From assembly GCA_963710355.1 (NCBI GenBank), contig CAVPZU010000001.1, positions 25,572 through 89,571 on the forward strand: DNA of 64,000 nucleotides. Direction: 5' to 3'. Positions 43,033 through 63,950 of this stretch are shown here, piece by piece (position 1 is the stretch's first letter; every line of letters begins with the position of its first letter). The notes beneath the pieces were generated by a model, which was not told the DNA's origin, did not search any database, and was given only the letters and a program-made list of their open reading frames with translations. The translations under genes were made by a program, and so were the position numbers. The DNA is from an uncultured Phycisphaerales bacterium. GTDB lineage: Bacteria; Planctomycetota; Phycisphaerae; Sedimentisphaerales; Anaerobacaceae.

Positions 43033-43303
43033 CCAAAAGGTTTATATCCAGCTTCTTGCGGTCGTATACGCTTATCTCGTATATATCAGTCATTACTATC
43101 GCGCCGGTAGGGCAGACCTGCGCACACATCCCGCAAAAGCAGCAAAGCTCCATATTGTATTTGAATGTTTCGAGCGTTTTTTTCTTATCTTCCTGCTTAT
43201 GAGTAATGGCAAGGCAGGCGGTGGGGCACATCTTCATACATTGATAACAGACGATACATTTCTCCGGATGAAGGCCGACCAAGCCTCTGAAACGCTCGCT
43301 CAT
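42989..43303 (-). CDS. nuoI: NADH-quinone oxidoreductase subunit I (2x[4Fe-4S]); homology continues upstream of the listed ATG
   Basis: Contains CIVCYQCMKMCP and CCFCGMCAQVCP. The in-frame upstream translation, WSLIKGLAVTLKYIFRPAVTLQYPTEKQP (to 43408), matches the conserved NuoI N-terminus but has no ATG/GTG/TTG. Confidence 0.85.
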   Translation of the reverse strand: MSERFRGLVGLHPEKCIVCYQCMKMCPTACLAITHKQEDKKKTLETFKYNMELCCFCGMCAQVCPTGAIVMTDIYEISVYDRKKLDINLLDAKKYDEWTHTSVK

Positions 43304-43421
43304 AGGCTGTTTCTCTGTCGGATACTGGAGAGTGACAGCAGGCCTGAATATATACTTTAAAGTAACGGCAAGCCCTTTTATAAGGCTCCAGTGCCGATAA
43401 CGAAATTTTTAGTGTACTTTA

Positions 43422-45505: not shown

Positions 45506-45514
45506 AAAGTTTAA

Positions 45515-45967
45515 TTACAATCTGGGTTTAGGGATAAACTCCGGGTCGGAATAATCTTTCCGCAAAGGATAATCTTTCCAATCGTAAGGATTTAATATCC
45601 TGCGTAAATCCGGATGGCCTAAAAAAGTAATGCCAAATAAATCGTATACTTCCCGCTCCAGCCAGTTTGCAGATTTCCAAATCGCCGACAAGCTCGCTAC
45701 ATTTAAGTCTTCAGGTGTTAAATATACTTTGAGGGTCACGCCATGATGTTCGCAAATGGAATACAAAATGTAGACCAGTTCCATCTTCTCTTTTCTGTCT
45801 ACTGCCGTTATACAGTGTAAATTATCAAAGGCCAGCGGAGGATTTTTTAAATATTGGGACACCTCCAAAAGAGACTCTCTGGGGACAATGATGTTATTAA
45901 TTCCTGCCTCTTCTTTGGCCTGCGGGAACCTGGCTTTTATAACTCCGGATATTTTATCTGGCTGCAT
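45515..45967 (-). CDS. nuoC: NADH-quinone oxidoreductase subunit C
   Basis: A 150-aa 30-kDa subunit homolog ([24 protein letters not shown]). Confidence 0.9.
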
Positions 45968-46469
45968 CTTTTTCGTTCCTTATTTTTTCCTGCAGTTTCA
46001 TCAGCCCAAAGAGCAAATTTTCCGGACGGGGCGGGCAACCGGGTATAAACACATCCACAGCGATGCCAAGCGACTCCGTTCCCTTTACGACCGAATAGGT
46101 GTCATAATAGAAGATGCCTCCCGAAATGGCGCAATTTCCCATAGCGATTACATATTTAGGTTCGGGCATTTGTGCATAAAGTCGCCGGACGCAGTCGCTC
46201 ATTTTGATACATATTGTTCCCGCTACAATCATAACGTCGCACTGCCTGGGACTTGCGCGGAACACTCCTGCGCCGAACCGGTCAATATCGAAACGCGGAG
46301 CGCCCGCAGCAATCATCTCAAAGGCGCAGCAGGCCAGTCCGAAGGTCATAGGCCACAGGGAGGACGCCTTTCCCCATTTTAAGAGGCTTTCACTTGTTGT
46401 CAGAAACAAACCTCCACCCGGGAACTTGCATATCAATTTTGCTGCGGGGATTTTTTCTATTACTACCAT
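45954..46469 (-). CDS. nuoB: NADH-quinone oxidoreductase subunit B
   Basis: A 171-aa PSST homolog ([22 protein letters not shown]). Confidence 0.93.
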
Positions 46470-47851: not shown

Positions 47852-48073
47852 TTACTTTTTCTCCGTTTTGTTAGTTTGGATTAACGCCACAATTGCCGCC
47901 TTGATATACTCTGGCAGTTTAGGCCAAACAGCTACGACTTTCGCTAAATCATCGGACAGGTTTTCTGCTTGATTTTCAGCTATTTTCGGATTATTTTTGT
48001 AAGCTGATTTGTAAGCACTGGATTGCTGTTGTTGTAAGTCTTTGCTTTTAATAGAGTTATTGTTTTTGGTCAA
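47852..48073 (-). CDS. Hypothetical small protein (low confidence)
   Basis: A 73-aa ORF with a TTG start that overlaps the tRNA fragment. No supporting features. Confidence 0.2.
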   Translation of the reverse strand: MTKNNNSIKSKDLQQQQSSAYKSAYKNNPKIAENQAENLSDDLAKVVAVWPKLPEYIKAAIVALIQTNKTEKK

Positions 48074-48119
48074 CGGATTTCTAATCCGTAGGTCACAGGT
48101 TCGAATCCTGTCGGGCGTG
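48073..48119 (+). tRNA. Truncated tRNA-Arg(UCU): 3' 47 nt only (anticodon arm, T-arm, 3' acceptor strand); att-site-like remnant
   Basis: Anticodon arm: acgga-ttTCTaa-tccgt. Variable loop: aggtc. T-arm: acagg-ttcgaat-cctgt. The 3' acceptor strand is cgggcgt, followed by g. There is no D-arm or 5' acceptor strand upstream. Confidence 0.7.
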
Positions 48120-48213: not shown

Positions 48214-49365
48214 ATACCAATTCCATAAATTAATTGCGCTCGATGTAGTTAGCTCGACATATACTTTTAACCAATTCAGCGGTAAGACAAACCCTTTGCC
48301 ACGCCTCGCATGCGGCCTCGCGAAGGTCATCATAATCTCGATAACTTCGATTTGACCAAAAATGGCTGCGAAGATATTGCCACAAATTCTCAACAGGATT
48401 CAATTCCGGACTATAGGCTGGTAGTTCTATTATGGTAACGTTTTCGGGTACGACAAGTTCCTTAGACTTGTGAAAACCAGCCTGATCCCAAATCAGAACC
48501 GCATGAACATCCGCAGCAATCTCCGTTGCGAACTGCTTAAGATAAACATTCATAACCTCTGTACTGATATACGGTGATAACATACCTACCGATTGTCCGG
48601 TCTGCGGACATACTGCTGATATTACATACAACCACTCATATTGAGTCTGCTTAACAGCAGCCGGGCGACTGCCGCGTCTTGCCCAAACCCTTGCCAATGT
48701 CCCCTGCTGACCGAAACGAGCTTCATCCTCGAACCATACCTCTAACCGTTTGTAAGGATGAGATGCAGCTATGACTTCCAGCCTCCCGCCGATGTTTTTT
48801 TAAAATCCTGCTGTGCTTTAATGTCCGCCCTCTGATGCCGAGGTCGCGGAGCCAAATAACTATACCCCAGACGATGCAGCAGCTGATAAACACCGTTGAG
48901 ACTGTAAACTACGCCAAACTCCTTGTTCAAGATTTTTTGAATGTCCTTGCCGTACAGTGTTGCTACTGCATCGTTCTTTGTAGGACCAGCATCGATACGG
49001 GATGAAAAGTGTTCATAACTGGCTGCAGGCAGATTCGGCTTTCGACCTGAATGGTGCTGTTCCTTCAGACCATCGATGCCATGGGTGTTATACTTTGCTA
49101 CCCAGCTTTGAATCGCCCTTCGAGAATATGCGGTCATTTGTGCAATCTCGACACAAGTATATCCCTGCTGGGCGAGCGCAACAGCCTGGATTCTTCCTGC
49201 GAGGCGGGCGTTTGTTTGAGATTTTGCTGATTTTAACAACTCTTTTACGCTTTTGTATTCCTTTACTGTCATAATAACCTCCATATCAATCATTTTTATA
49301 AATCAGGTTACTATGGTATGTATCGGAATATCCTATAAAGCGCATTTAATTATTGTAATTGGTAT
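48214..49365 (-). mobile_element. IS630-family insertion sequence
   Basis: The imperfect terminal inverted repeats ataccaattccataaattaattgcgct (48214-48240) and agcgcatttaattattgtaattggtat (49339-49365) enclose the two-frame transposase. Confidence 0.8.
48230..49293 (-). CDS. IS630-family transposase, encoded in two frames joined at an A7 slippery run
   Basis: The HTH part is in ORF 48769-49293 and the DDE part in ORF 48230-48697 (EVWFEDEARFGQQG just upstream, LIWDQAGFH, PAYSPELNPVENLW). The -1 frame opens exactly at the run of seven A at 48795-48801. Confidence 0.85.
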
Positions 49366-49578: not shown

Positions 49579-49986
49579 ATGAATAATCAAGGTTTGAAAA
49601 TATATGTTTTTTATTGTTCAAACAGCCTTGAACAAGACCAGTTAGCAGGTTTTAGTGGACTGGACAGAATTACTGTTAAGACAATCGGTTTGCCGTGTTC
49701 TGGAAAAGTGGATATCCCTTATTTAGTCAAAGCGTTTGAGACCGGTGCAGACGGGGTCGTAATCGTGACTTGCAAACAAAACGAGTGCCGTTACCCTGAG
49801 GGAAATATGCGGGCACAAAAAAGAGCCGAAGCGGTCGAATCGCTGCTCGAAGAAATCGGGATGGACAAAGGACGGATGGCGGTTATTGAGTTGCAAAAAG
49901 ACGGTGTTGAACAGGCCATTTCAGAAATCAAGGATTTCTTTGACAGCATAAGAAAACTGCCTCAAGCCCAAAGCAGCAACGTATAG
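49579..49986 (+). CDS. mvhD: MvhD/FlpD-like iron-sulfur protein (methyl-viologen-reducing hydrogenase delta subunit family)
   Basis: 135 aa with YVFYCSNS...IGLPCSGKVD...AFETGADGVVIVTCKQNEC...GN, the FlpD pattern. Confidence 0.85.
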   Translation: MNNQGLKIYVFYCSNSLEQDQLAGFSGLDRITVKTIGLPCSGKVDIPYLVKAFETGADGVVIVTCKQNECRYPEGNMRAQKRAEAVESLLEEIGMDKGRMAVIELQKDGVEQAISEIKDFFDSIRKLPQAQSSNV

Positions 49987-50000
49987 GAGAACGGGATAGT

Positions 50001-50905
50001 ATGAAGGTTGACAGCAAACTGGGAAAGAAAATAGCAAGTGGGGACTTTATTGTTACGGCGGAGCTTCTGCCGAGTGCAGCTGGGGATGGTGCGGGAACCG
50101 AGTCGGCTTTGAAGGCAATGGGTAACGGGCTTACAGCGGTCAACGTGGCCGACAACTGCCACGGTATAGGAATGTCTTCCATTGCGGCATCCGTCGCGGT
50201 GCTCAAATCCGGGGCCGAGCCGATTTGCCAGATAGTTACACGCGACCGAAACCGCATCGCACTTCAATCCGATTTGCTCGGGGCGGCATATCTTGGAATC
50301 AGGAACGTGCTGTGCCTGTCCGGTTATCATCAAACACTGACGGGATGTCCGGAATCAGCCAACGTTTATGATATTGATTCGACCCAGTTTATCGGAATGG
50401 CAACGAATATGTCCGAGAAGGGCGTTCTGGCCGACGGGACAAAGATTGAAGGGCAATTTTCAATGCTTGTGGGGGCAGTTGCTAATCCGTTTTTGAAACC
50501 GCTGGAATTAAATATGCTCCGGCTGCACAAGAAGGTTGAGGCGGCGCAAAATTTATTCAGACCGGCGCGATATTTGATATTGAGACATTCGGCCACTGGT
50601 TAGACGCCGCGATAAGTGAGGGCGTTACTGCAAAGGCGGCGATACTGGCGGGCGTTATACCTTTGGATTGTGCCGCTGAAGCCCAGAGACTGCGAGATAC
50701 TTACACCGATTATTGCATCCCAGACAACGTGATTGACCGGCTGAAAAAAGCAGGCGGTGAAGCGGCACAGAAAAAAGAAGGAATTGCAATCTGCATTGAA
50801 GCAATCAAGAAGCTCAAAAAGATGAAGGGTCTGAGAGGAATACACATACTTTGCGGCTGCAAAGGGAAAGTGGCGATTGAGGTTGTTGCCGCGGCCGGGT
50901 CGTAA
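50001..50905 (+). CDS. metF: MetF-type 5,10-methylenetetrahydrofolate reductase; frame interrupted at 50543-50544
   Basis: Contains IVTAELLP, QIVTRDRNRIALQSDLLGAAYLGIRNVLCLSG and KKVEA|GAKFIQTGAIFDIETF. The junction is restored by adding one G to gcggc. Confidence 0.85.
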
Positions 50906-50917
50906 CGGGAAAGAATT

Positions 50918-52348
50918 ATGCCGGAAAAATATCATATTAAGACACAGCCAGTTCCGCCTCGTCGGCCTCGTATAGGTAAATACGGCGTGGTGGACTGGCG
51001 TGAAGATTGCGCACGGTGCCACAACTGCGTCAAGAAGGCGTGTGTTTACGACCGCTACAGGCAGGAGGCGGACTATATTCGCAATCTCAGTGACGTAGAT
51101 GCCTTGTTTTTCGATTGTATGGGATGTTTTTCGTGCGTTCAGGATTGCACGAAGGGGCTTCTATGTATGTCAATCAATCCTGAATACGAAAAGATGGGTG
51201 ACAATTACTGGACGCCTGATATTATCAAGACGACGTGGCTTCAGGCGGAGACCGCGAAAATCCCGGTTTCGGCGCCGGTTATCGGGGGCCATTTGCTGGC
51301 AAGGGTTTCGATTCGATGTGGACGGATATGTCGGAGATTGTTCGCCCGACCCGCGACGGCATCCACGGGCGAGAGTACATCAGCACCTCGGTGGATATCG
51401 GCAGGAAACTTCCATATTTGGCTTTTAATGGCGTTAAGACGCCGGCAAATCCGCTGGTCTCGATTCCGATGCCGCTGATAATAGATATGACTTCGCCCTC
51501 GCATACGCTACCGCAGCTTGATGCGATTATTAAACAGACCGCCGAGAACACCGGCCTGATAGCAATAATTGATTCTCGCCAATGGTCAGGGGATGACAAG
51601 CAGCTTGAGAACATAGCGTTTTATTTAGGTACTGACAGTAAGGATGTCCCGAAGGAGGCAATGAGGAAAACTCGCCTCGTGGAAATAGCCGACCTTCCTC
51701 CGCCCGCCGGAGCGGGCTACGGGAAGGCGGGCAGCAGCAAGGTGATAGAACATATAAAGGAAATCAAAAAAATACATCCGCAAATAGTCGTGGCCGTAAG
51801 AGTTGAGTCTGATGGCGGCAGGGGTTGAGCGTGCTATAGAACTCGCGGAGCTTGAAGAAGTTGAGGTTATACACGTCGTGGCGGACGCCAACGGCAATGA
51901 ATTGGGTTCGAAGAAGCCGCGGTTTGTGAAGGATATGGTGCGTCAGATTCATACGACCCTGATAGAAAAAGGAAACAGGGACGAGATTACGCTTATGGCT
52001 GGTGGCGGAGTTGCGCTGCCGGAGCATTTGGCAAAAGCGATTATATGCGGCGCGGACTTAGTAACAATCAACCTGCCACTTTTGATAGCACTGGAATGTC
52101 ATCTGTGCAATAGTTGCAAGCGGGGTATGCCGTGCCCGGCCAAGCTTGAGAAAATAGATTTTGATTACGGCGTGGGCAGGATGACCAATCTTATCGCCGC
52201 CTGGCACGACCAGTTAGTGGAAGTTATGGGGGCGATGGGAATGCGTGAGGTCCGTCGTCTTAGAGGCGACATCGGCCGTGCGATGTTTTTTGAAAATCTT
52301 GAGGATGAAACCTTTGGCAAGCTTTTCGGTTCAAGAAAAAATGATTAA
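50918..52348 (+). CDS. Glutamate-synthase FMN-domain-like protein with an N-terminal Cys-rich region; degenerate paralog of the next gene; two frame interruptions (51271-51272, about 51811-51822)
   Basis: Three ORFs (50918-51478, 51235-51828, 51803-52348) join into one paralog-like sequence: CARCHNCVKKAC, WLQAETAKIPVS|GAGYRGPFAGKGFD, LMAGGGVALPEHLAKAIICGADLV. It lacks the GGMSFGS, QGAKPGxGG and GGTGA motifs. Confidence 0.7.
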
Positions 52349-53894
52349 GGAAATCCTGCCTGAGAAGACGCTGAAGACGCGCGTGCCGCAGGAAGGGGTG
52401 GCCCGGGTTATTAAGCCGGCGCCGTCGCGATATCGCAATGAAATTGCCAAGTATATCGTCCATCGTAACCTGAATTGCAAGCGATGCGGCAGGTGTGCCC
52501 AGGTGTGTCCATACAAAGTTCACGTGCTGAAACCCGGGTACAAGTATTTCGGCGAGCCGAGAAATCATTTGTGCATTGGCCCATCCTGTGAAAAGACCGA
52601 GCATTACTGCGCGGCAAAATGCCCCGAGGGGGCATTAGAGGTCAAAGAAAATCCAATGTATAAAACGCTTGGCGATTATCGCTGGCCTGCTGATTTGATA
52701 TTGGCGACGTGGAAAATGGCCGAGACCGGCGATGTCCCACCCGAAGAATACGGCTACGATTACGAATGCGGCAATTCCGGCGGCGGGTTCGATAAGCTCA
52801 TGTTCAGATTTCCCGACAAGCCGGCCGTAAAGCTCAACGAGAACCAGATAGATACAAGTATATCGCTGAATAAGCGTGACGATGGCCGGCCTAAAATCAA
52901 GATTGACGTCCCATGGTACGGCGGCGGAATGTCGTTCGGGTCGGTCAGCAATGTAACTCAATTATCAAAGGCTAGGGCGGCGGTAGCGTGGAACACGTTC
53001 ACCTGCACCGGCGAGGGCGGATATATGGAGCGGATGAGGCCTTATGACGACCACGTGATTACGCAAGTTGCCACGGGCCTTTTCGGCGTGCGTGAGGAGA
53101 CGATACAGCGGGTGCCGATAGTGGAATTCAAGTATGCCCAGGGCGCAAAACCCGGTCTTGGCGGGCATCTGTTGGGCGACAAAAACACGCCGGCGGTGGC
53201 GAAGATGCGCGAGGCGGTATTTGGGATTTCGCTGTTTTCGCCGTTCCCGTTCCACAGCGTCTATTCCATCGAAGACCACGCCAAGCATATCGACTGGATA
53301 AAGCACGTGAACAGGCGTGCCCTAATATCAACCAAGGTATCGACGCCGACGGATGTTGATATGGTCGCGGTCGGCAGTTACTCCGCCGGCACTCATATTG
53401 TCCACATAGACGGCGGGTATGGCGGAACCGGCGCCGCACCTGACATAGCAAAGAAGAACATTGCGATGCCGATTGAATACGCCATCGGCAAGGTTCATAA
53501 TTTTCTTACGGATGAGGGCGTTCGCGACAAGGTTACGCTTATAGCCAGCGGCGGGATACGCTCGGCCCACGACATGGCCAAGGCAATTGCTCTTGGTGCA
53601 GATGGAGTTGTAATAGGGACGGTGGAATTAGTGGCTCTTGGATGTGTGCGGTGCAGTCGCTGCGAGAGCGGGCGGGGGTGTCCACGCGGCATTGCCACAA
53701 CCGATGTTGAGCTGTCAAAGAAAATGGACATCGACTGGGGCACGCAGCGGCTTATTAACCTCTACAATGCCTGGCGAAAGGGGCTTGTCAGAATTCTTCA
53801 ACGTTTTGGAATGCGTAGTATCACCGAATTGCGAGGGCGCACCGACCTTTTGATGCATCTTGACTATACGAACGACGTGAGGGCGAAAAAATGA
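52341..53894 (+). CDS. Glutamate synthase FMN-binding domain protein (archaeal-type GltB domain 2) with an N-terminal ferredoxin-like 2x[4Fe-4S] region
   Basis: Contains CKRCGRCAQVCP / CAAKCPEG, then GGMSFGSVS, YAQGAKPGLGGHL, DGGYGGTGAAP and LIASGGIRSAHDMAKAIALGADGV. I prefer ATG 52341 (MIKEIL). The ORF track starts at 52245. Confidence 0.85.
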   Translation: MIKEILPEKTLKTRVPQEGVARVIKPAPSRYRNEIAKYIVHRNLNCKRCGRCAQVCPYKVHVLKPGYKYFGEPRNHLCIGPSCEKTEHYCAAKCPEGALEVKENPMYKTLGDYRWPADLILATWKMAETGDVPPEEYGYDYECGNSGGGFDKLMFRFPDKPAVKLNENQIDTSISLNKRDDGRPKIKIDVPWYGGGMSFGSVSNVTQLSKARAAVAWNTFTCTGEGGYMERMRPYDDHVITQVATGLFGVREETIQRVPIVEFKYAQGAKPGLGGHLLGDKNTPAVAKMREAVFGISLFSPFPFHSVYSIEDHAKHIDWIKHVNRRALISTKVSTPTDVDMVAVGSYSAGTHIVHIDGGYGGTGAAPDIAKKNIAMPIEYAIGKVHNFLTDEGVRDKVTLIASGGIRSAHDMAKAIALGADGVVIGTVELVALGCVRCSRCESGRGCPRGIATTDVELSKKMDIDWGTQRLINLYNAWRKGLVRILQRFGMRSITELRGRTDLLMHLDYTNDVRAKK

Positions 53895-56557
53895 GCGGCG
53901 AATTGATAAAACGGCTTGCAGATTCAAGAAGACAGTTAGCCGAAAATCTCAACTACTCTACGCAAATAAAGAAAGAGGCGGAGGAAGGCGGCTGCGGCGT
54001 TGTGGGTTTTTGCTGCAGTGAGGTGGTGCCCGGCAAGCATATCTACGAACCGTCTCGGCAGATGCACAATCGCGGAAACGGCAAAGGCGGAGGTATTGCC
54101 GCCCTCGGATTTGTGCCGGAGCAGCTTGGGGTGAGCCGGGAGGTGCTCGATAGTCATTATATGCTTCACGTGGCATTCCTCGATGAGAAAGCCCGTCCTG
54201 AAATCGAGAAACAATTTATTACGCCGAACTTCGATATTTCGGCCTCCTGCCAGCTCGAAAAAGCCGACGACTGGAAATCAATCCCGGGACTGGAGGTAAA
54301 GCCGCCGGACGTATGCCGATACTTTGTTCGCGTCAAGCCGAAGGTGCTTGATACTTTCATCGCAAAGAACAACCTGCAAAAGCTCGACAGGCGCGAGGTC
54401 GAAGATGAATTTGTCAATCAGAACAGCTTCAGCTTGAATCAGAAATATTACGCGTCTTTAGGCGAAAAAAGGGCCTTTGTGCTCTCTCACGGCAGAGATA
54501 TTATGATACTCAAGGTCGTTGGCTTCGCTGAAGCGATTGTAAAGTATTACAAAATCGAAGACCTCCGTGCCCACGTATGGATTGCCCATCAGCGATTCCC
54601 GACGAAGGGCCGGGTGTGGCATCCCGGCGGGGCGCATCCTTTTGCGGCCATCGATATGGCGCTGGTACACAACGGCGACTTTGCCAATTACCATTCCGTA
54701 ACCGAATACCTCAAGCAGCGTAATATTTATCCGCAGTTTCTCACCGATACGGAAGTTTCCGCCCTTTTATTTGATTTGCTCAGTCGGACTTACCACTATC
54801 CGCTCGAGTATATCATCGAGGCGCTGGCGCCGACCACGGAACTGGATTTTGACCGGTTGGATGAGGAAAAGCAAAAGGTTTACCGTGCCATACAGGCGAC
54901 CCATATACACGGCTCGCCGGACGGCCCGTGGTTTTTCATTATTGCCCGCAACGTTGCCCGTGAGAACAAATTACAGTTGATGGGTATAACCGACACGGCG
55001 ATGCTTCGACCTCAGGTGTTCGCGTTCTGCAACGGCGAGGTTCAGGTGGGCCTGATTTGCTCGGAAAAACAGGCCATAGACGCCACGCTTTTGAGTTTGT
55101 CGAAAGACGATAAGCGGATATGCCCGATTGCGGACCGATACTGGAACGCACGAGGTGGCAGCCATACCGACGGTGGAGCGTTTATATTCAACCTGGAAAA
55201 AGATTCCTCTGCTAAAATAAAGATTACCTGCACGGACAAATTCGGCACATCGGTCACTATGCCGGGAGGAACTGAGCAGTGTGATTTTTCCCAGAAACCG
55301 TCTCTGCCATCCGAATCGGAGGAAGACATACAGACAATAATCAATGAGAGATTTGTCCCCGGCAACGGCTTTGTGATTTTTGAAATGATTCGCGACCTGA
55401 TACCTGAATGGTCGTTTGATGAGTTTCGTTTTGCGTGCCGGCAAATCACCAACCAGGCCAAAGACGCTTCCAAGACGGCTATCGCGATAGAGGTCTTTTC
55501 TCTGCTCAATGACCGCAAATACTCAACCGGCTCAAAGAAACGCAGCCATATTCTTCATATTGTGCGAGGTGAATTGAACCTGTTGTTCTGGAATGTCCCC
55601 AATATAGGCGTGAAGAATTCATACGAGGGGGCGTATCGTCTCATTGATTTTGAGACGCGAGGTAATTTGAGGGGACCGCAGGGCAATGAAACAACTCTTG
55701 TAATCGACGCCGCCCATTTTCCGCCGGAAGGAAACGATTGCGATGCAGCCCTTCTGGTTGATGCATATATGAAGGGCTGGCGACATTTTATCAGCTTCAA
55801 TTGTATTGGTCAGCGATATGTTGGCTGCGGCTTAGGCCCGGAAACGGATGACGTTACAATAGACGTTTACGGCAGCAGCGGCGATTATCTCGGCTCCGGC
55901 CTGGACGGCCTGACCATCACCGTGCACGGCAATGCCCAGGACCAGCTTGGCCAAATCATAAAAAGAGGAAAATTGGTCATTCACGGCGACGTCGGGCAGA
56001 CGTTTTTATATGGCGCCAAAGGCGGCAGTGTTTATGTGCTGGGTAATGCAGCGGGAAGACCTCTTATCAACTCCGTCGGCAAACCCAAGGTTGTGATAAA
56101 CGGAACCTGTCTGGATTTTCTTGCCGAGTCCTTTATGGCGGGCGACCCGCATAACGGCGGCGGCTTTGTGGTATTAAACGGAGTCAAATTCGATGATGAC
56201 GGACAATTAGTAACGCTATCGCTGCCTTATCCCGGCAGCAACCTGTTCTCTTTAGCTTCGGGCGGAGCAATTTTTGTCCGCGACCCGAAAAATACCCTGG
56301 TCAAGCAGCAATTAAACGGCGGCCAGTTTGCCAAATTAACCGACGAGGACTGGGACCTGATACTGCCTTACCTTGAAGAAAATCAAAAGCTTTTTGGGAT
56401 AACAATAAAGCAGCTTTTGACCGTGGACGGCGAGCGGCACGACCCGGCGGAGGTTTATTGTAAAGTTGTTCCCGGCAACATTGCTGCCATCGCGTCGGAG
56501 GAGACCGACGAAGCCGACGAGGCCTCTGAAGAGGTGGCTGTGAAACAGGGCAAATAG
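53891..56557 (+). CDS. Fusion of a class II (Ntn) glutamine amidotransferase domain and a GXGXG domain (GltB domains 1 and 3)
   Basis: Contains CGVVGF...MHNRGNGKGGGIAA...AHQRFPTKG...LVHNGDFANY...TDTEVSALL (GATase II). The C-terminal part has GSSGDYLGSGLDGLTITVHGNAQDQLGQ...GKLVIHGDVGQTFLYGAKGGSVYVLGNAAGR (GXGXG repeats). Confidence 0.85.
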   Translation: MSGELIKRLADSRRQLAENLNYSTQIKKEAEEGGCGVVGFCCSEVVPGKHIYEPSRQMHNRGNGKGGGIAALGFVPEQLGVSREVLDSHYMLHVAFLDEKARPEIEKQFITPNFDISASCQLEKADDWKSIPGLEVKPPDVCRYFVRVKPKVLDTFIAKNNLQKLDRREVEDEFVNQNSFSLNQKYYASLGEKRAFVLSHGRDIMILKVVGFAEAIVKYYKIEDLRAHVWIAHQRFPTKGRVWHPGGAHPFAAIDMALVHNGDFANYHSVTEYLKQRNIYPQFLTDTEVSALLFDLLSRTYHYPLEYIIEALAPTTELDFDRLDEEKQKVYRAIQATHIHGSPDGPWFFIIARNVARENKLQLMGITDTAMLRPQVFAFCNGEVQVGLICSEKQAIDATLLSLSKDDKRICPIADRYWNARGGSHTDGGAFIFNLEKDSSAKIKITCTDKFGTSVTMPGGTEQCDFSQKPSLPSESEEDIQTIINERFVPGNGFVIFEMIRDLIPEWSFDEFRFACRQITNQAKDASKTAIAIEVFSLLNDRKYSTGSKKRSHILHIVRGELNLLFWNVPNIGVKNSYEGAYRLIDFETRGNLRGPQGNETTLVIDAAHFPPEGNDCDAALLVDAYMKGWRHFISFNCIGQRYVGCGLGPETDDVTIDVYGSSGDYLGSGLDGLTITVHGNAQDQLGQIIKRGKLVIHGDVGQTFLYGAKGGSVYVLGNAAGRPLINSVGKPKVVINGTCLDFLAESFMAGDPHNGGGFVVLNGVKFDDDGQLVTLSLPYPGSNLFSLASGGAIFVRDPKNTLVKQQLNGGQFAKLTDEDWDLILPYLEENQKLFGITIKQLLTVDGERHDPAEVYCKVVPGNIAAIASEETDEADEASEEVAVKQGK

Positions 56558-56570
56558 CGAAAGGATACAA

Positions 56571-57137
56571 GTGATAACAATCAAAAAAACGAGAGCGGGC
56601 GACGTCCTGAAAGACACGGTTGAGAAAATATCAGGCGTGGACCTGAGCGTGTGCCTGCAGTGCAGGAAATGCTCCAGCGGCTGTCCGGTGGCCAAGCTTG
56701 CAAAGTCCCGGCCTTCGGAGATTATGCGCCGGCTGCATCTGGACGCAGGCAACGAGCTGCTGGAAAGCGATATTCTCTGGATGTGTGTCTCGTGCGAGAC
56801 CTGTTCGGCCCGATGCCCGATGGGTATCGACGTTGCAGTGGTAATGGACGCATTACGCAAGCTCGCATTGGTTAGAGGAGCATCGAAGCAGGAAGGTAAT
56901 GTGCCTCTGTTTAACAGGGCATTTTTGAAGACGGTTGAGATATTCGGCAGGACTTATGAAATTGCGATGATAGCCGCTTACAAATTAGGCACCGGGAAAT
57001 TTATGAACGACACGGAAAAATTCCCGACGATGCTGAAGAAAGGGAAAATCTCATTGATACCGTCGCTTGGCGGCGACAGAAAAACGGTGAGACGTATTTT
57101 CAAAAAAACGAAACAGAATAAAGGGGTCGAGATATGA
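56571..57137 (+). CDS. hdrC: Heterodisulfide reductase subunit C-like protein
   Basis: Has two ferredoxin-type motifs, CLQCRKCSSGCP and CVSCETCSARCP. 188 aa, immediately upstream of hdrB. Confidence 0.85.
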   Translation: MITIKKTRAGDVLKDTVEKISGVDLSVCLQCRKCSSGCPVAKLAKSRPSEIMRRLHLDAGNELLESDILWMCVSCETCSARCPMGIDVAVVMDALRKLALVRGASKQEGNVPLFNRAFLKTVEIFGRTYEIAMIAAYKLGTGKFMNDTEKFPTMLKKGKISLIPSLGGDRKTVRRIFKKTKQNKGVEI

Positions 57138-58012
57138 GATACGCCTACTATCCTGGATGTTCGGCTGAATCGACGGCCCGCGATATGCACCAGTCAACTT
57201 TGGCCGTCGCCGGCGCGCTCGGAATTGAAATGGTCGAGCCGAAGGGCTGGACCTGCTGCGGCGCTACCGCCGGGCACCAGACCGACCGCGTGTTGGCCGC
57301 ATCGCTGCCCGCCGCCAATTTAATCAAGGTCCGGGATATGGGGCTTGATATGGTGGTAAATTGCGCGGCCTGCTACAACAGGATGAAGGTGGCAAACCAC
57401 GAAATTTCAACGGATTCAGGAATCCGCAAAAGCGTTTGCGATGCGATTGGCAGGGACTATGACGGTTCGGTCAAAGTCAGGCATTTTATTGAGGTGCTTC
57501 TCGAAGACGTTGGACTCCAGACAATCGGCAACGCCGTCAAGCGTTCGCTTAATGGTCTCAAGGTGGCTTGTTATTACGGGTGTCTGCTTGTTCGCCCGCC
57601 GAAGGTTGTGAAATTTGACGACCCGGAGAATCCGACGTCGCTCGATAAGCTGGTGAAAACCATTGGCGGCAGAAGCATTGACTGGCCATATAAAACCGAA
57701 TGCTGCGGCGGAGGTCTGTCGCTTTCGAGAACCGACGTTGTAGTCAATCTCACGGATTCGATTCTGAGTATGGCCCAAAGTGCGGGTGCAGATTGTATTG
57801 CGGTAAGCTGCCCGATGTGCCAGGTCAATCTCGACTTGCGGCAGCAGGATATAAAAAAACAGAGTGGCAGGGATTATCAAATGCCGATTGTGTATATCAC
57901 GCAGCTTCTGGGAATTAGTTTCGGTATCAGTTCGCGATTGCTCGGATTCAATAAGCTTATGGTTTCGCCATCGAGCGTTTTTGAAAAGGTAAAAGTGACC
58001 AGCAATGGGTAA
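57134..58012 (+). CDS. hdrB: Heterodisulfide reductase subunit B-like protein (two CCG domains)
   Basis: Contains YYPGCS...WTCCGATAG and YYGCLLVRP...ECCGGGLS. Confidence 0.9.
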   Translation: MRYAYYPGCSAESTARDMHQSTLAVAGALGIEMVEPKGWTCCGATAGHQTDRVLAASLPAANLIKVRDMGLDMVVNCAACYNRMKVANHEISTDSGIRKSVCDAIGRDYDGSVKVRHFIEVLLEDVGLQTIGNAVKRSLNGLKVACYYGCLLVRPPKVVKFDDPENPTSLDKLVKTIGGRSIDWPYKTECCGGGLSLSRTDVVVNLTDSILSMAQSAGADCIAVSCPMCQVNLDLRQQDIKKQSGRDYQMPIVYITQLLGISFGISSRLLGFNKLMVSPSSVFEKVKVTSNG

Positions 58013-61000
58013 ATATGATGACAAGAGGATTGGCGCAGTGCTTGTGCAGGGCGGTGGTATTGCCGGCGTTCAGGCATCCCTCGATTTAGCCAACAGCGGT
58101 TTTAAGGTTTACCTGGTCGAGCGTGACGCCGCCATAGGCGGTATGATGGCCCATTTGGACAAGACCTTTCCGACTGGTGATTGTGCCACCTGCATTGTCT
58201 CGCCCAAGCTCGTCGAATGCGCGAGAAATTTGAATATCGAGATACTGACCCTTTCGGAGCTGGTGGACCTTCAGGGCGAGCCGGGTAATTTCAAAGCTAC
58301 GGTCAGGCGGCATCCGCGATACGTGGACGAGGACAAATGCACCGGCTGCAGCGAATGCACGCAGGTCTGCCCGGTGGACGTGCCGGACGAATTCAACCGG
58401 TGTCTCGGAACCAGAAAAGGCATCGCCAAACTCTACGCTCAGGCCACCCCGAATATATTCGGCATTCTGAAAAATGGCCATGCGCCTTGTAAGATAAAAT
58501 GCCCCGCGAAGGTAAACGTCCAGGGCTACGTCCAGCTCATAAAGAAAAAGGAATACGTCAAGGCGGTCAATCTCATTCGCCAGAGAAATCCGCTTTCGGC
58601 AATTTGCGGCCGGGTGTGCACGCATCCTTGCGAAGCCGAGTGCATGCGAGGTAAAGCAGACGACCCAATTGCTATCCGGCTATTGAAACGGTTTGCGTCG
58701 GATAAAGAGATGGAAATGGTCGAGGCGGGCCAACTGACCCTGCCCGAAGAGAAATATCCTTCGCCTGATGCGGAGAAGGTGGTCATAATCGGCGCAGGCC
58801 CGGCGGGACTAACCGCGGCCGACGACCTTGCCGATGCCGGTTTTGCGGTGACCGTATATGAAGCCCTCGATAAGGCAGGCGGTATGCTCCACTATGCTAT
58901 CCCTGAGTATCGACTGCCCAAGAAAGTATTGGATTACGAAATAGAGCTTATTCGCCGAAAGGGCGTTAAGTTCGTTTATAACACTCGCGTCGGCAAAGAT
59001 ATTACCATTCAGAAACTTCGTCAGGACAACGAGGCGGTATTCATCTCTGCCGGGCGCAAAAAAGCCGCAAACTCGGCGTAACAGGCGAGCAAACCAGCGG
59101 AGTTCTTTACGGCGTTGAATTCCTCAGGGACGCGGCCTCTGCCGGAAAACCCGTTGTGAAAAACAAAGTCATAGTCATTGGCGGCGGCAATGTCGCGGTT
59201 GACGTCGCCAGGACCGCCCTGCGACTCGGCGCCAAAGATGTCGAAATGGTCTGCCTCGAACAGAGAGACGAGATGCCCGCCTATAAGGAGGAAGTCGAAG
59301 CGACATTGGCTGAAGGCATCAGGATTCGAAACGGCTGGGGACCAATGGGTATTCTGGGCAACGGTTCGGTCACGGGCGTAGAGTTCAAACGCTGCACAAG
59401 GGTCTTCGATGACCAGAAACGTTTCAAGCCGACATTTGACGAAAACGACCTTATCAAAGTTGATGCAGAGCAAATTATCATTGCAATCGGCCAGATGACC
59501 GATGAGCAGTTCGTCGGCCACGTAGAGGTAGAAAGCCAGCGTGGCTGTTTCAAAACCGACCCTGTAACCTGCCAAACTTCAATAGAAGGTGTTTTTGCCG
59601 GTGGTGACAACGCTTCCGGCCCTGTGTCTGTTATTGAGGCGGTGGCAGCAGGCAAACGGGCGGCGGAATCCATTGAACTGTATTTGAACGATAAAGATTT
59701 GCTGGCCGGCCGTTTCGAGGAAACCATTAAACCGATTCCCGAAGAGTTGCTTCCTTCGATAGAGAAGGTGGAGAAAAAAGCCCGGAACAGGCCCGAAGAA
59801 TTGGCACCGGCAAACCGGCTAAAGAATTTCGAAGAGGTCGAAAAAGGACTCACCGAAGAGCAGGCCCTTGCGGAGGCCGAACGTTGTCTTAATTGTGCCC
59901 TGTGCTCGGAGTGTAACCAATGCGTCGAGGTCTGTGAGCAGCATGCAATCGACCACGCTATGAAAGAGCGCACGGTCAAATTGGAGGTCGGCTCGGTTAT
60001 CCTCACCCCAGGATTTGAAGAGTTCGACGCCACGCGGAAAGGCGAATTCGGCTACGGCCGGTATCCCAATGTCGTTACAAGCGTTCAATTCGAGCGAATG
60101 CTTAGCGCCGCCGGCCCGTTTGAAGGCCACGTCATACGTCTTTCGGACGGCCAGCCGGCCAAAAGCATAGCGTGGATTCAGTGCGTCGGCTCGCGTGATT
60201 CGGAATGCGGCAACGAATACTGCTCCTCGATTTGCTGTATGATGGCGACCAAGCAGGCAATGGTCGCCGGCGACCACGTCGTCGGGCTTGACGCAACCAT
60301 CTTCTATATGGACATCCGCGCCTACGGCAAGGATTTCGACCAGTATTATGAGCGTGCCAAAGCACAGAAAAACATACATTACATCAAGAGCATTCCGTCG
60401 CGGGCAATTCAGCTTCCCTGCAGCAAAGACCTTCGTCTTAACTATCTTGATGAGAACAATCAGATTCAGCAGAAGGACTTTGACCTTGTAGTGTTGTCGG
60501 TGGGAATGGAACCGCCGGCCTCTATGGTGGAGTTTACATCTCGTCTCGATATAAAACTCAATGACTTTGGCTTCTGCTGGACGGACCGGCTGTCGCCGTT
60601 GTCAACCTCAATACCGGGTGTATTCGTCGGCGGGGCGTTCCAGGAACCCAAGGACATCCCCGAAACGGTAACACAGGCCAGTGCCGCTGCTTCAATGGCA
60701 ATGGAACTTTTGGCACCGGCGCGTAATACTCTTATTACCAAAAAAACCTACCCCGATGAGCACGACGTTACCGATGAACAGCCGCGGATAGGCGTATTCG
60801 TCTGCCACTGCGGAATGAATATCGGCTCGGTAGTTGACGTCGAACGGGTGGTCAAAAATATCGAGAACCAGCCCGACGTCGTTTTCGCGTCTCATACGAT
60901 GTTTACCTGTTCCGATACGAGCTTGTCGAACATCAAGGATATGATTCACGAGCATCGGCTCAACCGTGTCGTGGTCGCCTCCTGCACCCCGCGAACACAT

Positions 61001-62502
61001 GAGCCGTTGTTCCGCGAGACGCTGCGAGAGGCGGGCCTCAACCCATACCTGTTCGAAATGGCCAACATACGAGACCAATGCTCCTGGGTTCACTCAGCGG
61101 TTCCCCAGTCGGCCACCGAAAAATCAACCGAACTCGTGAAAATGGCCATCGCTAGGGCGAGGCTGCTCACGCCTCTTGAAAGCGGCACTTTGGCAGTTGA
61201 CCAGACGGGCCTTGTTATTGGCGGGGGCCTGAGTGGTATGACCGCCGCGCTGGCGCTGGCAAACCAGGGATTCAAGGTGCATCTGGTGGAGCGAGACAAT
61301 CGTCTGGGGGGACTCTCCACGATATTTACCACACATTTGAACACGATGACATCGCCGAGTTTACAAAAGCCCTCGTAAAGCAGGTTGAAAAACATCCCGA
61401 CATCGAGCTTCATCTGGGGACCGAGGTTGCCGGCGTTGCAGGCCACATCGGCAAATTCAAAATTACGCTTGCCAAAGAGGGCTCGAAATCCGAAATCACG
61501 GGCGGCACAATAATTGTTGCCACCGGCGCCCGAAAGGCCCAGACAACCGAATTTATGTATAGCCAGTCCGACCGTGTTTTAACACAGGTCGAACTGGAAA
61601 AACTGCTGTTCGATAAAGCGTATCCTGCAAAAGGGCAAAATGTGGTTATGATTCAATGCGTCGGCTCACGCAACGATGAACATCCCTATTGCAGCCGAAT
61701 CTGCTGCTCGATGGCCATCAAAAACGCAATTGAAATTAAAAAACGCGACCCCAACGCAAATATTTATGTTCTTTACAGAGACGTCAGAACTTACGGCTTC
61801 AGGGAAACATATTACAAACAGGCCCGCGAGCAGGGCGTCGTCTTTATCCGCTACACGCCTGATACACCGCCACAGGTAAGTCAAAATAACGGTTTGGTGG
61901 TGACTCTCAAAAGCCCCGACCTGCCTGAAGCGATTGAAATTGAAGCCGATAACGTCGTGCTGAGCACGGGTGTTGTTGCTGATATAGAAAACAACAAGCG
62001 CATCTCAGATATGCTCAAAGTGCCGCTCAATGCCGATGGCTTCTATGTCGAGGCGCATATGAAATTGCGTCCCGTGGATTTTACCACGGAAGGCATTTTC
62101 CTTTGCGGACTCGCGCATTCGCCGAAGTTCATCGATGAGAACATCTCGCAGGCACGGGCCGCCGCCGCACGAGCGGCTACGGTGCTTTCGAAACCGCACT
62201 TAGACGTCAGTGCCCAGGTTTCATACGTTGACCAGCAGAAGTGTATATCCTGTATGACCTGTGTTAATACCTGTCCCTATTCGGCGCCTTTCTGCAACAA
62301 GGACGGCAAGGGTCAGATTGAGGCCGCCAAGTGTATGGGCTGCGGTATATGCGCATCGGAATGTCCGGCACGGGCCATACAACTGCATCATTTTGAGACC
62401 GACCAGTTCAACGTGATGATTCGGCAGTTGTTCGCCAGCGGGGACGGTGAAATATCGGCAGGAGTACCCACACAAGTAAAGGAGTTAACGGAAAAAGTAT
62501 AA
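58005..62502 (+). CDS. hdrA: Giant HdrA-like flavoprotein: HdrA unit carrying an inserted GltD/NfnB-like module, followed by a second HdrA unit; two frame interruptions (59052-59063, 61306-61311)
   Basis: VLVQGGGIAGVQASLDLANSGFKVYLVE and DKTFPTGDCATC are HdrA-type. CGRVCTHPCEAEC, VVIIGAGPAGLTAADDLADAGFAVTVYE and VIVIGGGNVAVDVART are GltD-like. GLVIGGGLSGMTAALALANQGFKVHLVE, CISCMTCVNTCP and CMGCGICASECP belong to the second HdrA unit. ORFs 58005-59081, 59156-61378 and 61555-62502 are contiguous once single bases are restored. Confidence 0.85.
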
Positions 62503-62505
62503 GCT

Positions 62506-62967
62506 ATGAAACAGGAAACCTTCGAGCCCAAAATCGTTGCCTTTTGCTGCCACTATTGTGCGTATTCCTCGGCGGATTTGGCGGGGTCTATGCGCATCCA
62601 GTATCCGCCCAACGTGCGAATAATCCGCACACCCTGCACCGGCCGGCTCGAGACCGAATACTTTATGAAGGCATTTGAAAACGGCGCAGACGGCGTCCTC
62701 GTCGCTGGCTGTCTCGAAGGCGGCTGCCACTTTGTCGAGGGTAACCTTTGCGCAAAACGCCGGGTCAATTACACAAGGGAAATGCTCGAAGAAATCGGGA
62801 TGGAAAAGGAACGGCTGCGTATGGTAAACGTTTCCGCCGCGATGGCGCGTCCTTTGGCTGATATTATTACTGATATGGTGGAGACCGTTCGCAAACTGGG
62901 CCCAAGCCCCCTGAAACTATCCGCCGCGGCGGATAAAAATGGTTTATCTAAACAGGAGAGCCGATAA
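62506..62967 (+). CDS. mvhD: MvhD/FlpD-like iron-sulfur protein (second copy)
   Basis: Contains IVAFCCHYCAY...IRTPCTGRLE...AFENGADGVLVAGCLEGGCHFVEGN. Confidence 0.88.
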   Translation: MKQETFEPKIVAFCCHYCAYSSADLAGSMRIQYPPNVRIIRTPCTGRLETEYFMKAFENGADGVLVAGCLEGGCHFVEGNLCAKRRVNYTREMLEEIGMEKERLRMVNVSAAMARPLADIITDMVETVRKLGPSPLKLSAAADKNGLSKQESR

Positions 62968-63635
62968 TGATAGTCGCTCAAAGAAAAAGTATCCCCGACC
63001 TGCTGGCAATAATAAAAAATCACAAAAAGATTCTCGTGCTCGGCTGCGGCACCTGCGTTACCGTATGCCTTGCAGGCGGACAGTGTGAGGTAAGCATCAT
63101 TGCTTCTGCATTACGAATGGCCGCAAAATTGAAAGGCCTGCCGCTCCAGGTTGAGGAGTTGACGATAGAGTGCCAGTGCGACAACGTCTTTCTTGAGCAG
63201 GCGGCCGAAGCGATAGAGAGAAACGATGCCGTTCTTTCACTTGGTTGCGGCGCTGGCGTTCAGGCCATTGCCGAGCGTTATGCCAGCAAGCCTGTTTACG
63301 CGGGCCTTGATACGACTTTTATCGGCATCCTCGAAGAAAGAGGCGTCTGGACCGAAAAATGCGCGGCCTGTGGCGCCTGTGTGCTCCACCAGTATGGCGG
63401 TATTTGTCCGGTTACTCGCTGTGCCAAACGTATGCTTAACGGCCCGTGCAGCGGCTCACGCGAAGACCGATGCGAAGTCAATCCGCAGCGCCAGTGCGCT
63501 TGGCAGCTTATATATAAGCGTCTCAAAGAAATCGGCCAGCTCGACAGACTAAAAGAGATCAAACCACCGAAGAATCGGAGTCTGAGCCATGATGGTGGCT
63601 ACCGTACTATAATCCGTGAAGACCACAGAATTTGA
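62967..63635 (+). CDS. metV: MetV-like protein (methylene-THF reductase C-terminal domain, Cys-rich)
   Basis: Contains LGCGTCVTVCLAGG, CAACGACVL...GICP and MLNGPCSGS (the NGPCGG-type motif of the MTHFR_C family). The start overlaps the mvhD stop. Confidence 0.8.
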   Translation: MIVAQRKSIPDLLAIIKNHKKILVLGCGTCVTVCLAGGQCEVSIIASALRMAAKLKGLPLQVEELTIECQCDNVFLEQAAEAIERNDAVLSLGCGAGVQAIAERYASKPVYAGLDTTFIGILEERGVWTEKCAACGACVLHQYGGICPVTRCAKRMLNGPCSGSREDRCEVNPQRQCAWQLIYKRLKEIGQLDRLKEIKPPKNRSLSHDGGYRTIIREDHRI

Positions 63636-63925
63636 TAATCAAATGGAGAATATAATTATTTTAATAGTGACCTAAAGAGTGGAACATTGGCTCGCCTTTG
63701 TGACTTCAATGAAAAAATATCAAGTATGTGATCTGGTTCAGACAGATACAAATATGGGCAGGCCACCTAGGCTCGCACCAAAATTTGCACCAAAGGGTCT
63801 CTGTTGGTCTTCGGTTCGCTCTCGGTTGCTTGTCGGCCGGCTTCATAAGTTTTTATTTTGCAAGTATAAACCGTTTATTCAGAAACACTTACAAGCCTTC
63901 AGTTCGGACTGTCGATTCTAAGGTT

Positions 63926-63950
63926 GAGGGTTCGAGCCCCTTCGGCCTCG
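63926..63950 (+). other. tRNA-like T-arm plus 3' acceptor strand with no matching 5' half
   Basis: Reads gaggg-ttcgagc-ccctt followed by cggcctc-g and a T-run. No complementary 5' acceptor strand (gRggYYg) or anticodon arm could be found upstream. Confidence 0.3.

Follow-up and report, generated by a model that had tools for sequence, protein, structure and literature searches.

The methylene-tetrahydrofolate (methylene-THF) reductase of Moorella thermoacetica is the MetFV-HdrABC-MvhD complex that Mock et al. reportedly described in 2014. In Hdr complexes of solved structure (5ODC, 7BKB), partner modules dock onto HdrA through MvhD, an adaptor that joins the electron-donor module to HdrA. Archaeal-type split glutamate synthases (GltS) have the GltB domains on separate polypeptides, with an Fe-S domain on the subunit that binds flavin mononucleotide (FMN). 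The Moorella reductase oxidises NADH, holds two flavin adenine dinucleotides (FAD) in HdrA and has a second acceptor that has remained unidentified (PMC5861303; reviewed there and in PMC6085437); the E0' of methylene-THF is -200 mV (PMC5861303). HdrA proteins with an inserted NfnB/GltD-like domain are known as HdrL of Desulfobacterium autotrophicum (PMC2702500) and as the HdrA-NfnB fusions HdrA9-11 of ANME-1 (PMC9012536). Here we analyse a ten-gene cluster in a 64,000-nt stretch (the window) of the genome of an uncultured Phycisphaerales bacterium. Very probably the ten genes form a conserved operon that encodes an Hdr-type methylene-THF reductase plus an MvhD-linked glutamate synthase. Every module comes from a known family; the combination is common and strongly conserved, and a full-text literature search found no paper describing glt genes in an hdr-metFV cluster. 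Judging from the protein sequences, we give a probability of about 0.5 to the reading that the ten genes encode one Hdr-centred, flavin-based electron-bifurcating complex that serves both glutamate synthase and methylene-THF reductase; that the Glt and Hdr/Met parts reside in one physical complex at all seems slightly the better bet.

Ten co-directional open reading frames (ORFs) fill positions 49579-63635 of the window on the + strand, in the order mvhD1, metF, glu1, glu2, a GATase+GXGXG fusion gene (GATGX), hdrC, hdrB, hdrA, mvhD2 and metV (Table 1). Neighbouring ORFs either overlap (glu1/glu2 by ~44 nt, glu2/GATGX and hdrC/hdrB by 4 nt, hdrB/hdrA by 8 nt, mvhD2/metV by 1 nt) or lie at most 14 nt apart (mvhD1/metF 14 nt, metF/glu1 12 nt, GATGX/hdrC 13 nt, hdrA/mvhD2 3 nt). 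All ten assignments are backed by Pfam profile searches, and domains and coordinates agree with the tight, co-directional order given in a first-pass annotation made from the sequence alone. All ten proteins stay below the NCBIfam equivalog cutoffs; the Hdr profiles of that collection were built for methanogen enzymes. That annotation had also named internal promoters or terminators as something that might split the cluster. When the whole cluster was scanned, promoter-like and terminator-like sites were no more frequent than in shuffled sequence. No sigma-54 promoter was found upstream of mvhD1 in the window. A terminator-like feature at 63921-63948 was considered as a tRNA and was not confirmed as one.

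Table 1. Features of the window and of related loci. Positions are those of the window unless a locus is named; "corrected" lengths are those after reversion of the 1-nt indels listed.
Feature	Position	Strand	Description
mvhD1	49579-49986	+	FlpD/MvhD-like [2Fe-2S] adaptor, four Cys; Pfam FlpD E 1.7e-27
metF	50001-50905	+	acetogen/MetFV-type methylene-tetrahydrofolate reductase; Pfam MTHFR; 301 aa corrected
glu1	50918-52348	+	Pfam Fer4_9 and C-terminal part of Glu_synthase (on fragments); 476 aa corrected
glu2	~52305-53894	+	FMN/Fe-S subunit, N-terminal ferredoxin-like domain; Pfam Fer4 and Glu_synthase E 1.9e-90
GATGX	53891-56557	+	GATase+GXGXG fusion, 888 aa; Pfam GATase_6 E 1.5e-6, GXGXG E 1.8e-17
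GATase part of GATGX	~53993-55210	+	
helical linker of GATGX	~55300-55600	+	
GXGXG beta-helix of GATGX	~55748-56470	+	
hdrC	56571-57137	+	2x[4Fe-4S] subunit; Pfam Fer4_8/Fer4_17
hdrB	57134-58012	+	two CCG domains (non-cubane cluster sites); Pfam CCG E 2.5e-22 in two stretches
hdrA (HdrL type)	58005-62502	+	1499 aa corrected; Fer4_20/Pyr_redox_2 (GltD/NfnB-like) inside
NfnB/GltD-like NAD(P)H:FAD domain within hdrA	58473-59923	+	Pfam Fer4_20, Pyr_redox_2, NAD_binding_8
mvhD2	62506-62967	+	canonical MvhD/FlpD; Pfam FlpD E 2.4e-50; NCBIfam VhuD E 7e-45
metV	62967-63635	+	MTHFR C-terminal-domain Fe-S subunit; Pfam DUF5981 E 9.2e-37
metF indel	50543		1-nt deletion relative to L001
glu1 indels	51273, 51808		deletion and insertion, 1 nt each, relative to L001
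hdrA indels	59054, 61309		1-nt deletions relative to L001
rho, first part	27741-28346	-	Rho_N and Rho_RNA_bind
rho, second part	27104-27895	-	ATPase domain
complex I-type operon	37349-46469	-	nuoB, C, D, H, J, L, M and a large antiporter-like ORF
IS630-like transposase	48230-49293	-	HTH ORF 48769-49293, DDE_3 ORF 48230-48697
tRNA-like fragment	48052-48111	+	Rfam 30.7 bits, model positions 8-63
stand-alone GltD/NfnB-like gene	L054 13145-14566; L056 14417-15652; L059 19834-21261		475 aa; Fer4_20 and Pyr_redox_2
extra Glu_synthase-domain gene	L025 1163-2794; also L029, L041, L078, L082	- (L025)	544 aa
GlcD-like-Glt family	L088 4877-12313; L090 2403-10205; L089 10001-19459; P0143, P0159, P0195, P0204, P0253		
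GAF-sigma54 activator gene	L051 255-2585; L052, L055, L059, L062, L063, L065-L068, L070, L072, others		
leader upstream of mvhD1	L003 5512-5712; L027 5529-5704; L028 5357-5532; 11 further Verrucomicrobiota loci		~155-175 nt

The first-pass annotation had recognised HdrCBA-MvhD-MetV-MetF as the Moorella-type set, and in agreement with this all six families were recovered by profile searches, metF (MTHFR) and metV (DUF5981) being co-localised with hdrA, hdrB, hdrC and mvhD in one cluster. As in the Moorella reductase, the enzyme predicted from these genes would be NADH-linked, HdrA-based and presumably bifurcating, with more than one FAD in HdrA. It differs in four extra, always present and interleaved genes (mvhD1, glu1, glu2 and GATGX), and its carriers are mostly not acetogens; its HdrA, a tandem protein with an NfnB/GltD-like insert, may be a further difference. 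The MetF ortholog of metagenomic contig L001, the closely related sequence used below as reference, has as its best NCBIfam match the MTHFR half of PRK08645 (E 5.6e-47), and MetV has no sequence relative in PDB. HdrC and HdrB match the NCBIfam profiles for CoB-CoM heterodisulfide reductase subunit C (E 4.5e-18) and HdrB (E 2.6e-60), in both cases under the curated cutoff. MvhD1 is the most divergent subunit of the set and is 34 % identical to MvhD2.

HdrA matches the HdrA of PDB 5ODC (E 4e-178) and NCBIfam HdrA2 (E 8e-296), each in four stretches. The first half of the protein has an HdrA-like FAD fold and a ferredoxin insert; the NfnB/GltD-like domain (aa ~157-640) splits this insert, between two CX2CX2CX3C motifs that lie at aa 112 and aa 634. 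A complete HdrA makes up the second half, which comprises the CxCG of the N-domain, an FAD fold and, at the C-terminus, a 2x[4Fe-4S] domain (two CX2CX2CX3C); the whole protein could hold up to three flavins. In PDB, aa 160-640 match NfnA of Nfn-Bfu, the Stn family, NfnB (5JCA) and GltD (6S6S), and the insert matches NCBIfam PRK12771 (E 1e-168). No stand-alone gltD is present in the window's cluster, and the insert is its sole NAD(P)H-binding, small-subunit-like module. Pfam, PDB and NCBIfam matches and the motif map thus agree with the earlier claim that the only GltD-like module is embedded in HdrA. This type of HdrA had, however, already been named (HdrL, PMC2702500; HdrA-NfnB, PMC9012536). 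The described forms share with the present one a ~480-500-aa NfnB/GltD-like domain in the HdrA ferredoxin insert and an mvhD gene that follows (here 3 nt on). They lie beside dsr, fdh or other genes and not beside GltB-like genes, and the form described here adds the second HdrA-like half. With GltBD and NfnAB the cluster shares the GltD/NfnB-fold FAD and 2x[4Fe-4S] as point of pyridine-nucleotide entry, as well as the conserved chemistry of the GltB FMN site. The GltD-like module is here embedded in HdrA instead of being a free subunit docking onto GltB, and therefore any path to the FMN must cross the Hdr, MvhD and Glu1 clusters.

The part of A. brasilense GltB (1EA0/2VDC) to which Glu2 can be aligned is residues 857-1170 (E 1.7e-50). 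Glu2 retains QGAKPG with its Lys, GEGG, the Arg of AKMR and three Fe-S cluster cysteines; it has a fourth cluster cysteine (C-x2-C-x2-C-x5-C), and the Gln of GGQL is replaced by His. Having the motifs of the GltS FMN domain, Glu2 looks catalytically competent. We take the Lys of QGAKPG and the Arg of AKMR to be residues of the 2-oxoglutarate site, by analogy with the roles assigned in GltS structures. Glu1, a paralog that matches Glu2 over its full length at 26 % identity, has lost the QGAKPG and GGTGA motifs and has no catalytic loop. Still present are a Cys region of the 2x[4Fe-4S] type at the N-terminus and the C-terminal C-x2-C-x2-C-x5-C cluster; Glu1 is a degenerate paralog and probably acts as an Fe-S electron-wire subunit. 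Of the two FMN/Fe-S GltB paralogs in the first-pass annotation, Glu2 therefore keeps its catalytic motifs whereas Glu1 does without them.

The third protein of the Glt trio, GATGX, matches FwdC, GlmS and ferredoxin-dependent GltS (Fd-GltS) in PDB, and its GXGXG beta-helix domain is clearly present (PDB matches FwdC and Fd-GltS). A putative propeptide (aa 1-34) precedes the nucleophile Cys35. The GATase residues C35, H59-N60-R61-G62, H260-N261-G262-D263 and T285-D286-T287-E288, which constitute a class-II/Ntn signature, are invariant in 42/42 aligned homologs, and the domain may be catalytically competent, judging from this conservation. The Pfam match itself is marginal (GATase_6, 28.7 bits vs a 27-bit cutoff), and Cys35 needs removal of the 34-aa propeptide. 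A loss of catalytic residues from the GltB-like proteins, which would have spoken against the original proposal, was thus not seen on alignment for Glu2 or the GATase. The label "archaeal-type" holds in part. Shared with the archaeal enzymes are the splitting of the large-subunit domains, an N-terminal ferredoxin-like domain and a 4-Cys motif on the FMN subunit, and the lack of a separate GltD. The family is however bacterial, its GATase and GXGXG domains are fused via a ~150-200-aa helical linker, and it includes the degenerate FMN-domain paralog and an associated MvhD gene.

It is highly improbable that the trio is no glutamate synthase and catalyses some other amide or amine transfer tied to one-carbon (C1) metabolism, for instance in the manner of N-methylglutamate synthase, whose subunits MgsABC are GltB-domain homologs. 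The association with a folate C1 enzyme would fit such an activity, as would the divergent GATase, barely above its Pfam cutoff, and the failure of all ten proteins to reach equivalog cutoffs. The Fe-S input domains of Glu2 and its GltS cluster cysteines nevertheless imply net electron transfer to the FMN, for which a redox-neutral amine exchange would have no use. Moreover, the 2-oxoglutarate-binding Lys and Arg are conserved in Glu2, relatives adjoin glnA, aconitase and a LeuA-like gene, and neither N-methylglutamate dehydrogenase nor gamma-glutamylmethylamide synthetase is present. Neither the window nor the 80 loci showed gmaS or mgdABCD as neighbours; MgsABC is set apart by its neighbours and by the Fe-S domains, not by profile.

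Relatives of GATGX number more than 7600 at E<=1e-10 among 90 %-identity protein clusters. Identity is 76-95 % for the best 120, whose names are those of Sedimentisphaerales, Verrucomicrobiota, Limisphaerales and Deltaproteobacteria metagenome-assembled genomes (MAGs); across phyla, sequences are 67-95 % identical. A scan with one genome per species found a relative encoded in 247 genomes, and the three close relatives that were looked up have the identical ten-gene order with all genes intact. When all ten proteins were placed by tblastn on 86 fetched loci, 49 loci contained all ten genes in the order of the window. These belong to Sedimentisphaerales/Phycisphaerae (Planctomycetota), Verrucomicrobiota, Desulfomonilia (Desulfobacterota), Dehalococcoidia/Chloroflexia (Chloroflexota) and FCPU426, and the ten-gene block recurs in at least four bacterial phyla. 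In eight Desulfobacterota loci the order is cyclically permuted to GATGX-hdrC-hdrB-hdrA-mvhD2-metV-mvhD1-metF-glu1(-glu2); among them are a Desulfonema MAG, a Desulfosudis oleivorans MAG and ORM2a. The run hdrC-hdrB-hdrA-mvhD-metV-(mvhD1)-metF in these loci matches what we take to be the Moorella order. Nearly all remaining loci end at contig edges. In one of them (L068) the cluster resembles the permuted form in that GATGX comes first, with no glu genes before it; the contig stops within hdrA. The sole apparent exception is L024, in which no hdr gene follows GATGX despite a 10-kb flank; there a defence/mobile island (12770-22748) interrupts the cluster, with a PLD-like nuclease, SNF2/helicase, Eco57I-like methylase, DruA and a DDE_Tnp_1-associated domain.

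The arrangement is thus far beyond chance, and the adjacency on which the original proposal depended is kept in 49 complete and 8 permuted loci of several phyla. That proposal spoke of glt genes interleaved with hdr/met genes. They are intermixed, but the locus is better described as a circle of two units, mvhD1-(metF)-glu1-glu2-GATGX and hdrCBA-mvhD2-metV-(metF), of which the Desulfobacterota carry the other rotation. Because the permuted form has hdrCBA-mvhD-metV-metF in one run with glt genes on both sides, the interleaving is one rotation of this circle. Pairwise distance matrices of the ten proteins, compared over 39 non-redundant complete loci, correlate with r 0.71-0.96 (GATGX vs HdrA 0.96, Glu1 vs HdrA 0.95), and correlations between the Glt and Hdr/Met sets are as high as those within the sets. 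Judged by these protein distances, the ten subunits share one evolutionary history and have been inherited together. The cluster has a G+C content of 0.52, against 0.46 for the remainder of the window. A recent horizontal transfer into this genome, to which this difference and the transposase and tRNA-like fragment upstream might point, was considered and rejected: across 62 loci the G+C content of the cluster tracks that of the host (0.42-0.65) and exceeds it by only 3.5 points on average, which speaks for long residence. Together these data favour strong constraint and a long stay in most lineages over a recent sweep, with Desulfomonilia L030/L031 as the exception.

Some further genes were noted around the cluster. 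In the window, an IS630-like transposase lies just upstream, beside a tRNA-like fragment in which ARAGORN recognised no tRNA. A stand-alone GltD/NfnB-like gene directly follows metV in three Planctomycetota loci, and an extra Glu_synthase-domain gene stands upstream on the opposite strand in five loci (Table 1).

The Glt trio also occurs in other settings. A search of 50 %-identity representatives gave 298 clusters at E<=1e-30. A sister clade at 57 % identity has the unit mvhD-glu1-glu2-GATGX (L091 1-7175; L092 294-4624). In L091 there is no metF, glnA lies directly upstream, an IS4-like transposase follows GATGX, and an MvhD similar to MvhD1, with a single N-terminal Cys, directly precedes glu1; in L092 no hdr gene is found downstream of the Glt unit. 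In clades with 38-51 % identity to GATGX, the trio lies beside a GlcD-like FAD_binding_4/FAD-oxidase_C plus Fer4 protein (L088, L090), and some fusions of trio and GlcD-like module are single polypeptides of 2200-3150 aa (the longest 3152 aa), one of them from a Brocadiia MAG. This GlcD-like-Glt family has the Glu1-like, Glu2 and GATase-GXGXG parts in the same order as the cluster, with the flavoprotein and Fer4 in place of Hdr, MvhD and MetFV. We know of no description of such fusions, which may be 2-hydroxyacid-driven glutamate synthases. Elsewhere, a GATGX homolog gene adjoins an aconitase or a LeuA-like gene; the neighbours of the trio suggest 2-oxoglutarate and nitrogen metabolism. Because sister clades join the same trio to a GlcD-like flavoprotein, it looks, from gene context, like a portable glutamate synthase acceptor module fed by interchangeable electron-donor modules.

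These settings also bear on the possibility that the cluster encodes two independent enzymes, a MetFV-HdrABC-MvhD reductase and, apart from it, a split glutamate synthase dependent on ferredoxin or MvhD, held together by co-regulation or co-transfer and sharing no electron path. The Glt unit can occur alone, as in L092, or with other partners; the Hdr/Met set equals the complete Moorella gene set (PMC6085437, PMC5861303); and the ferredoxin-like domains of Glu1 and Glu2 could take electrons from soluble ferredoxin. Yet the co-occurrence is strict and survives gene-order rearrangement in at least four phyla, and the two sets are never cleanly separable, metF always lying between mvhD1 and glu1. 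The 4-nt glu2/GATGX overlap, the GATGX-hdrC gap of only 13 nt and the distance correlations, which between the sets match those within them, point the same way. In addition, an MvhD without hydrogenase or formate dehydrogenase has HdrA as its only known partner. Two separate enzymes are, on balance, somewhat unlikely.

In the single bifurcating complex that we favour, NADH would deliver its electrons to the NfnB/GltD-like flavin of HdrA, and these would move on to the HdrA flavin(s). HdrA would be wired to MetV/MetF by one of the MvhD [2Fe-2S] adaptors, and MetV/MetF would reduce methylene-THF to methyl-THF. The other adaptor would wire HdrA through the Glu1 Fe-S clusters to the FMN of Glu2, where glutaminase-channelled ammonia and 2-oxoglutarate would be reduced to glutamate. 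Because both reductions are well downhill from NADH, energy would be left over, and the bifurcating flavin could spend it on transferring the second electron to an acceptor of low potential. That acceptor could be ferredoxin, reached through the C-terminal 2x[4Fe-4S] domain of HdrA, or a putative partner of HdrBC. Formation of glutamate and methyl-THF would then yield reduced ferredoxin and recover part of the ATP spent by glutamine synthetase (GS).

We count in favour of this complex that the cluster has one more MvhD than Moorella and that a sister-clade MvhD directly precedes glu1-glu2-GATGX, together with the tight junctions, conserved order, correlated distances, kept catalytic motifs and lack of a stand-alone gltD. 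Several points weigh against it. Adjacent genes can be co-inherited by co-transfer alone. The Glt unit of L092, with no hdr downstream, presumably works without a co-encoded Hdr. Bifurcation is not thermodynamically required, both acceptors being downhill from NADH, and the role of HdrBC is left unexplained. The placing of the glutamate synthase (GOGAT) couple above the -200 mV of methylene-THF is a rough estimate of our own. The MetF flux for methionine is small in organisms without a Wood-Ljungdahl pathway. AlphaFold2 gave GATGX a mean predicted local distance difference test score of 57.7, with the GATase core below 50. That the complex carries out ferredoxin-reducing bifurcation is put forward tentatively, with the odds somewhat against it.

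The same complex could also run in the reverse direction, with methyl-THF as donor: MetFV would feed HdrA via MvhD, and the flavin would bifurcate along an uphill path to NAD+ through the NfnB/GltD-like domain and a downhill path into glutamate synthase as sink. This would make methyl-group oxidation feasible (reverse Wood-Ljungdahl pathway, methylotrophy). It would fit the position of MvhD between donor module and HdrA in solved Hdr complexes, as described above, given that the HdrA here is homologous. The GlcD-like FAD-linked oxidases joined to the sister-clade trio are substrate-oxidising dehydrogenases with similarly high-potential donors, and carriers include complete-oxidiser/reverse Wood-Ljungdahl lineages (the Desulfosudis oleivorans MAG, ORM2a, Desulfobacterales, Syntrophaceae). 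The E0' of the methylene-THF/methyl-THF couple, -200 mV (PMC5861303), is also compatible. However, stoichiometric glutamate is no catabolic sink unless glutamate dehydrogenase and GS recycle it at the cost of ATP, and the cluster encodes neither enzyme. Among the carriers are many fermentative Planctomycetota and Verrucomicrobiota with no demonstrated Wood-Ljungdahl pathway, and corrinoid methyltransferase, folD and fhs are not recurrent in the flanks. We therefore regard the reversed direction as quite unlikely.

Three genes of the cluster are interrupted in the window. Comparison with L001 (89.8 % identity along 14.1 kb) reveals exactly five 1-nt indels that break the frame, distributed across metF, glu1 and hdrA (Table 1). 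Reverting them gives MetF of 301 aa, Glu1 of 476 aa and HdrA of 1499 aa, lengths that match orthologs, and the corrected frames of the three genes contain no in-frame stops. The ratio of nonsynonymous to synonymous substitution rates (dN/dS) vs L001 is 0.05-0.2 for all ten genes (metF 0.083, glu1 0.075, hdrA 0.085), indicating purifying selection, and downstream of the shifts it is 0.05-0.15, the same as in intact genes. Elsewhere in the window rho (27104-28346, - strand) is frameshifted as well, into two overlapping ORFs, which indicates indel errors in the assembly beyond the cluster; similarly split matches occur in other long-read-style MAG loci (L030, L062, L078, L085). Because there are no stops, dN/dS is low and rho is also frameshifted, the five indels are most probably assembly errors. 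Decay, the alternative named in the first-pass annotation, thus left no sign apart from the indels themselves. That the frameshifts are real and the cluster is a decaying pseudogene array in this genome has a very small chance of being right: five 1-nt indels in three genes, none of them in a long homopolymer, and the intact ORFs of the nearby 9-kb nuo operon would speak for it, but stop-free corrected frames, unrelaxed dN/dS past the shifts, the split rho and the split matches in the four MAG loci oppose it. A very recent inactivation may have occurred. Selenocysteine read-through of the HdrA breaks was excluded, as these are frame changes and not in-frame TGA codons. The nuo operon is of complex I type, with ORFs intact over ~9 kb; the nuoE/F/G module was not seen among the ORFs examined.

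As to regulation, a gene for an activator with GAF and sigma-54-interaction domains (NifA-like architecture) lies near the ten-gene cluster in 14 loci, on the same strand ~0.9 kb off and upstream in 13 of them. The upstream position is taken in 8 other loci by genes for a CheB/CheR-PAS-histidine kinase and a response regulator. Sigma-54-like TGGCA-N6-TGGCA elements and the GAF-sigma54 activator gene were seen only in lineages other than that of the window. No Wood-Ljungdahl or methyltransferase genes recur in the flanks of the loci. In 14 Verrucomicrobiota loci a conserved ~155-175-nt leader precedes mvhD1; it starts TGGCAAACAAATGGCAATAAT and has a hairpin and T-run ~30 nt before the start codon. 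The leader may combine a promoter with an attenuator or a riboswitch. A search for a riboswitch gave no Rfam match at gathering threshold in six loci, the L028 leader and the upstream region of the window had none even at E<=5, and RNAalifold on the 14 close Verrucomicrobiota leaders showed almost no covariation.

The cluster is an addition to the known Hdr-based modular redox complexes, and from its gene content a new class of bifurcating enzyme is plausible. As a possibility held with some reserve, we propose a ten-subunit class with an HdrA(L)BC-MvhD2 core that would couple NADH oxidation to glutamine-dependent glutamate formation and methylene-THF reduction while reducing ferredoxin. If so, the class would occur widely among those anaerobes of peat, wetlands and sediments that belong to Planctomycetota, Verrucomicrobiota, Desulfobacterota and Chloroflexota, and nitrogen assimilation by GS-GOGAT would be partly energy-recovering in them. 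To judge from the sister families, the split glutamate synthase has been plugged into at least two donor modules, the MvhD-linked Hdr set and the GlcD-like flavoprotein. Should the ten proteins form one complex, glutamate synthase would join the short list of bifurcation-driving reactions and would provide a testable candidate for the second redox partner of the HdrABC-MvhD-MetFV reductase, open since 2014. The ATP bookkeeping of nitrogen assimilation would then change for the energy-limited anaerobes that dominate carbon turnover in peat and sediment.

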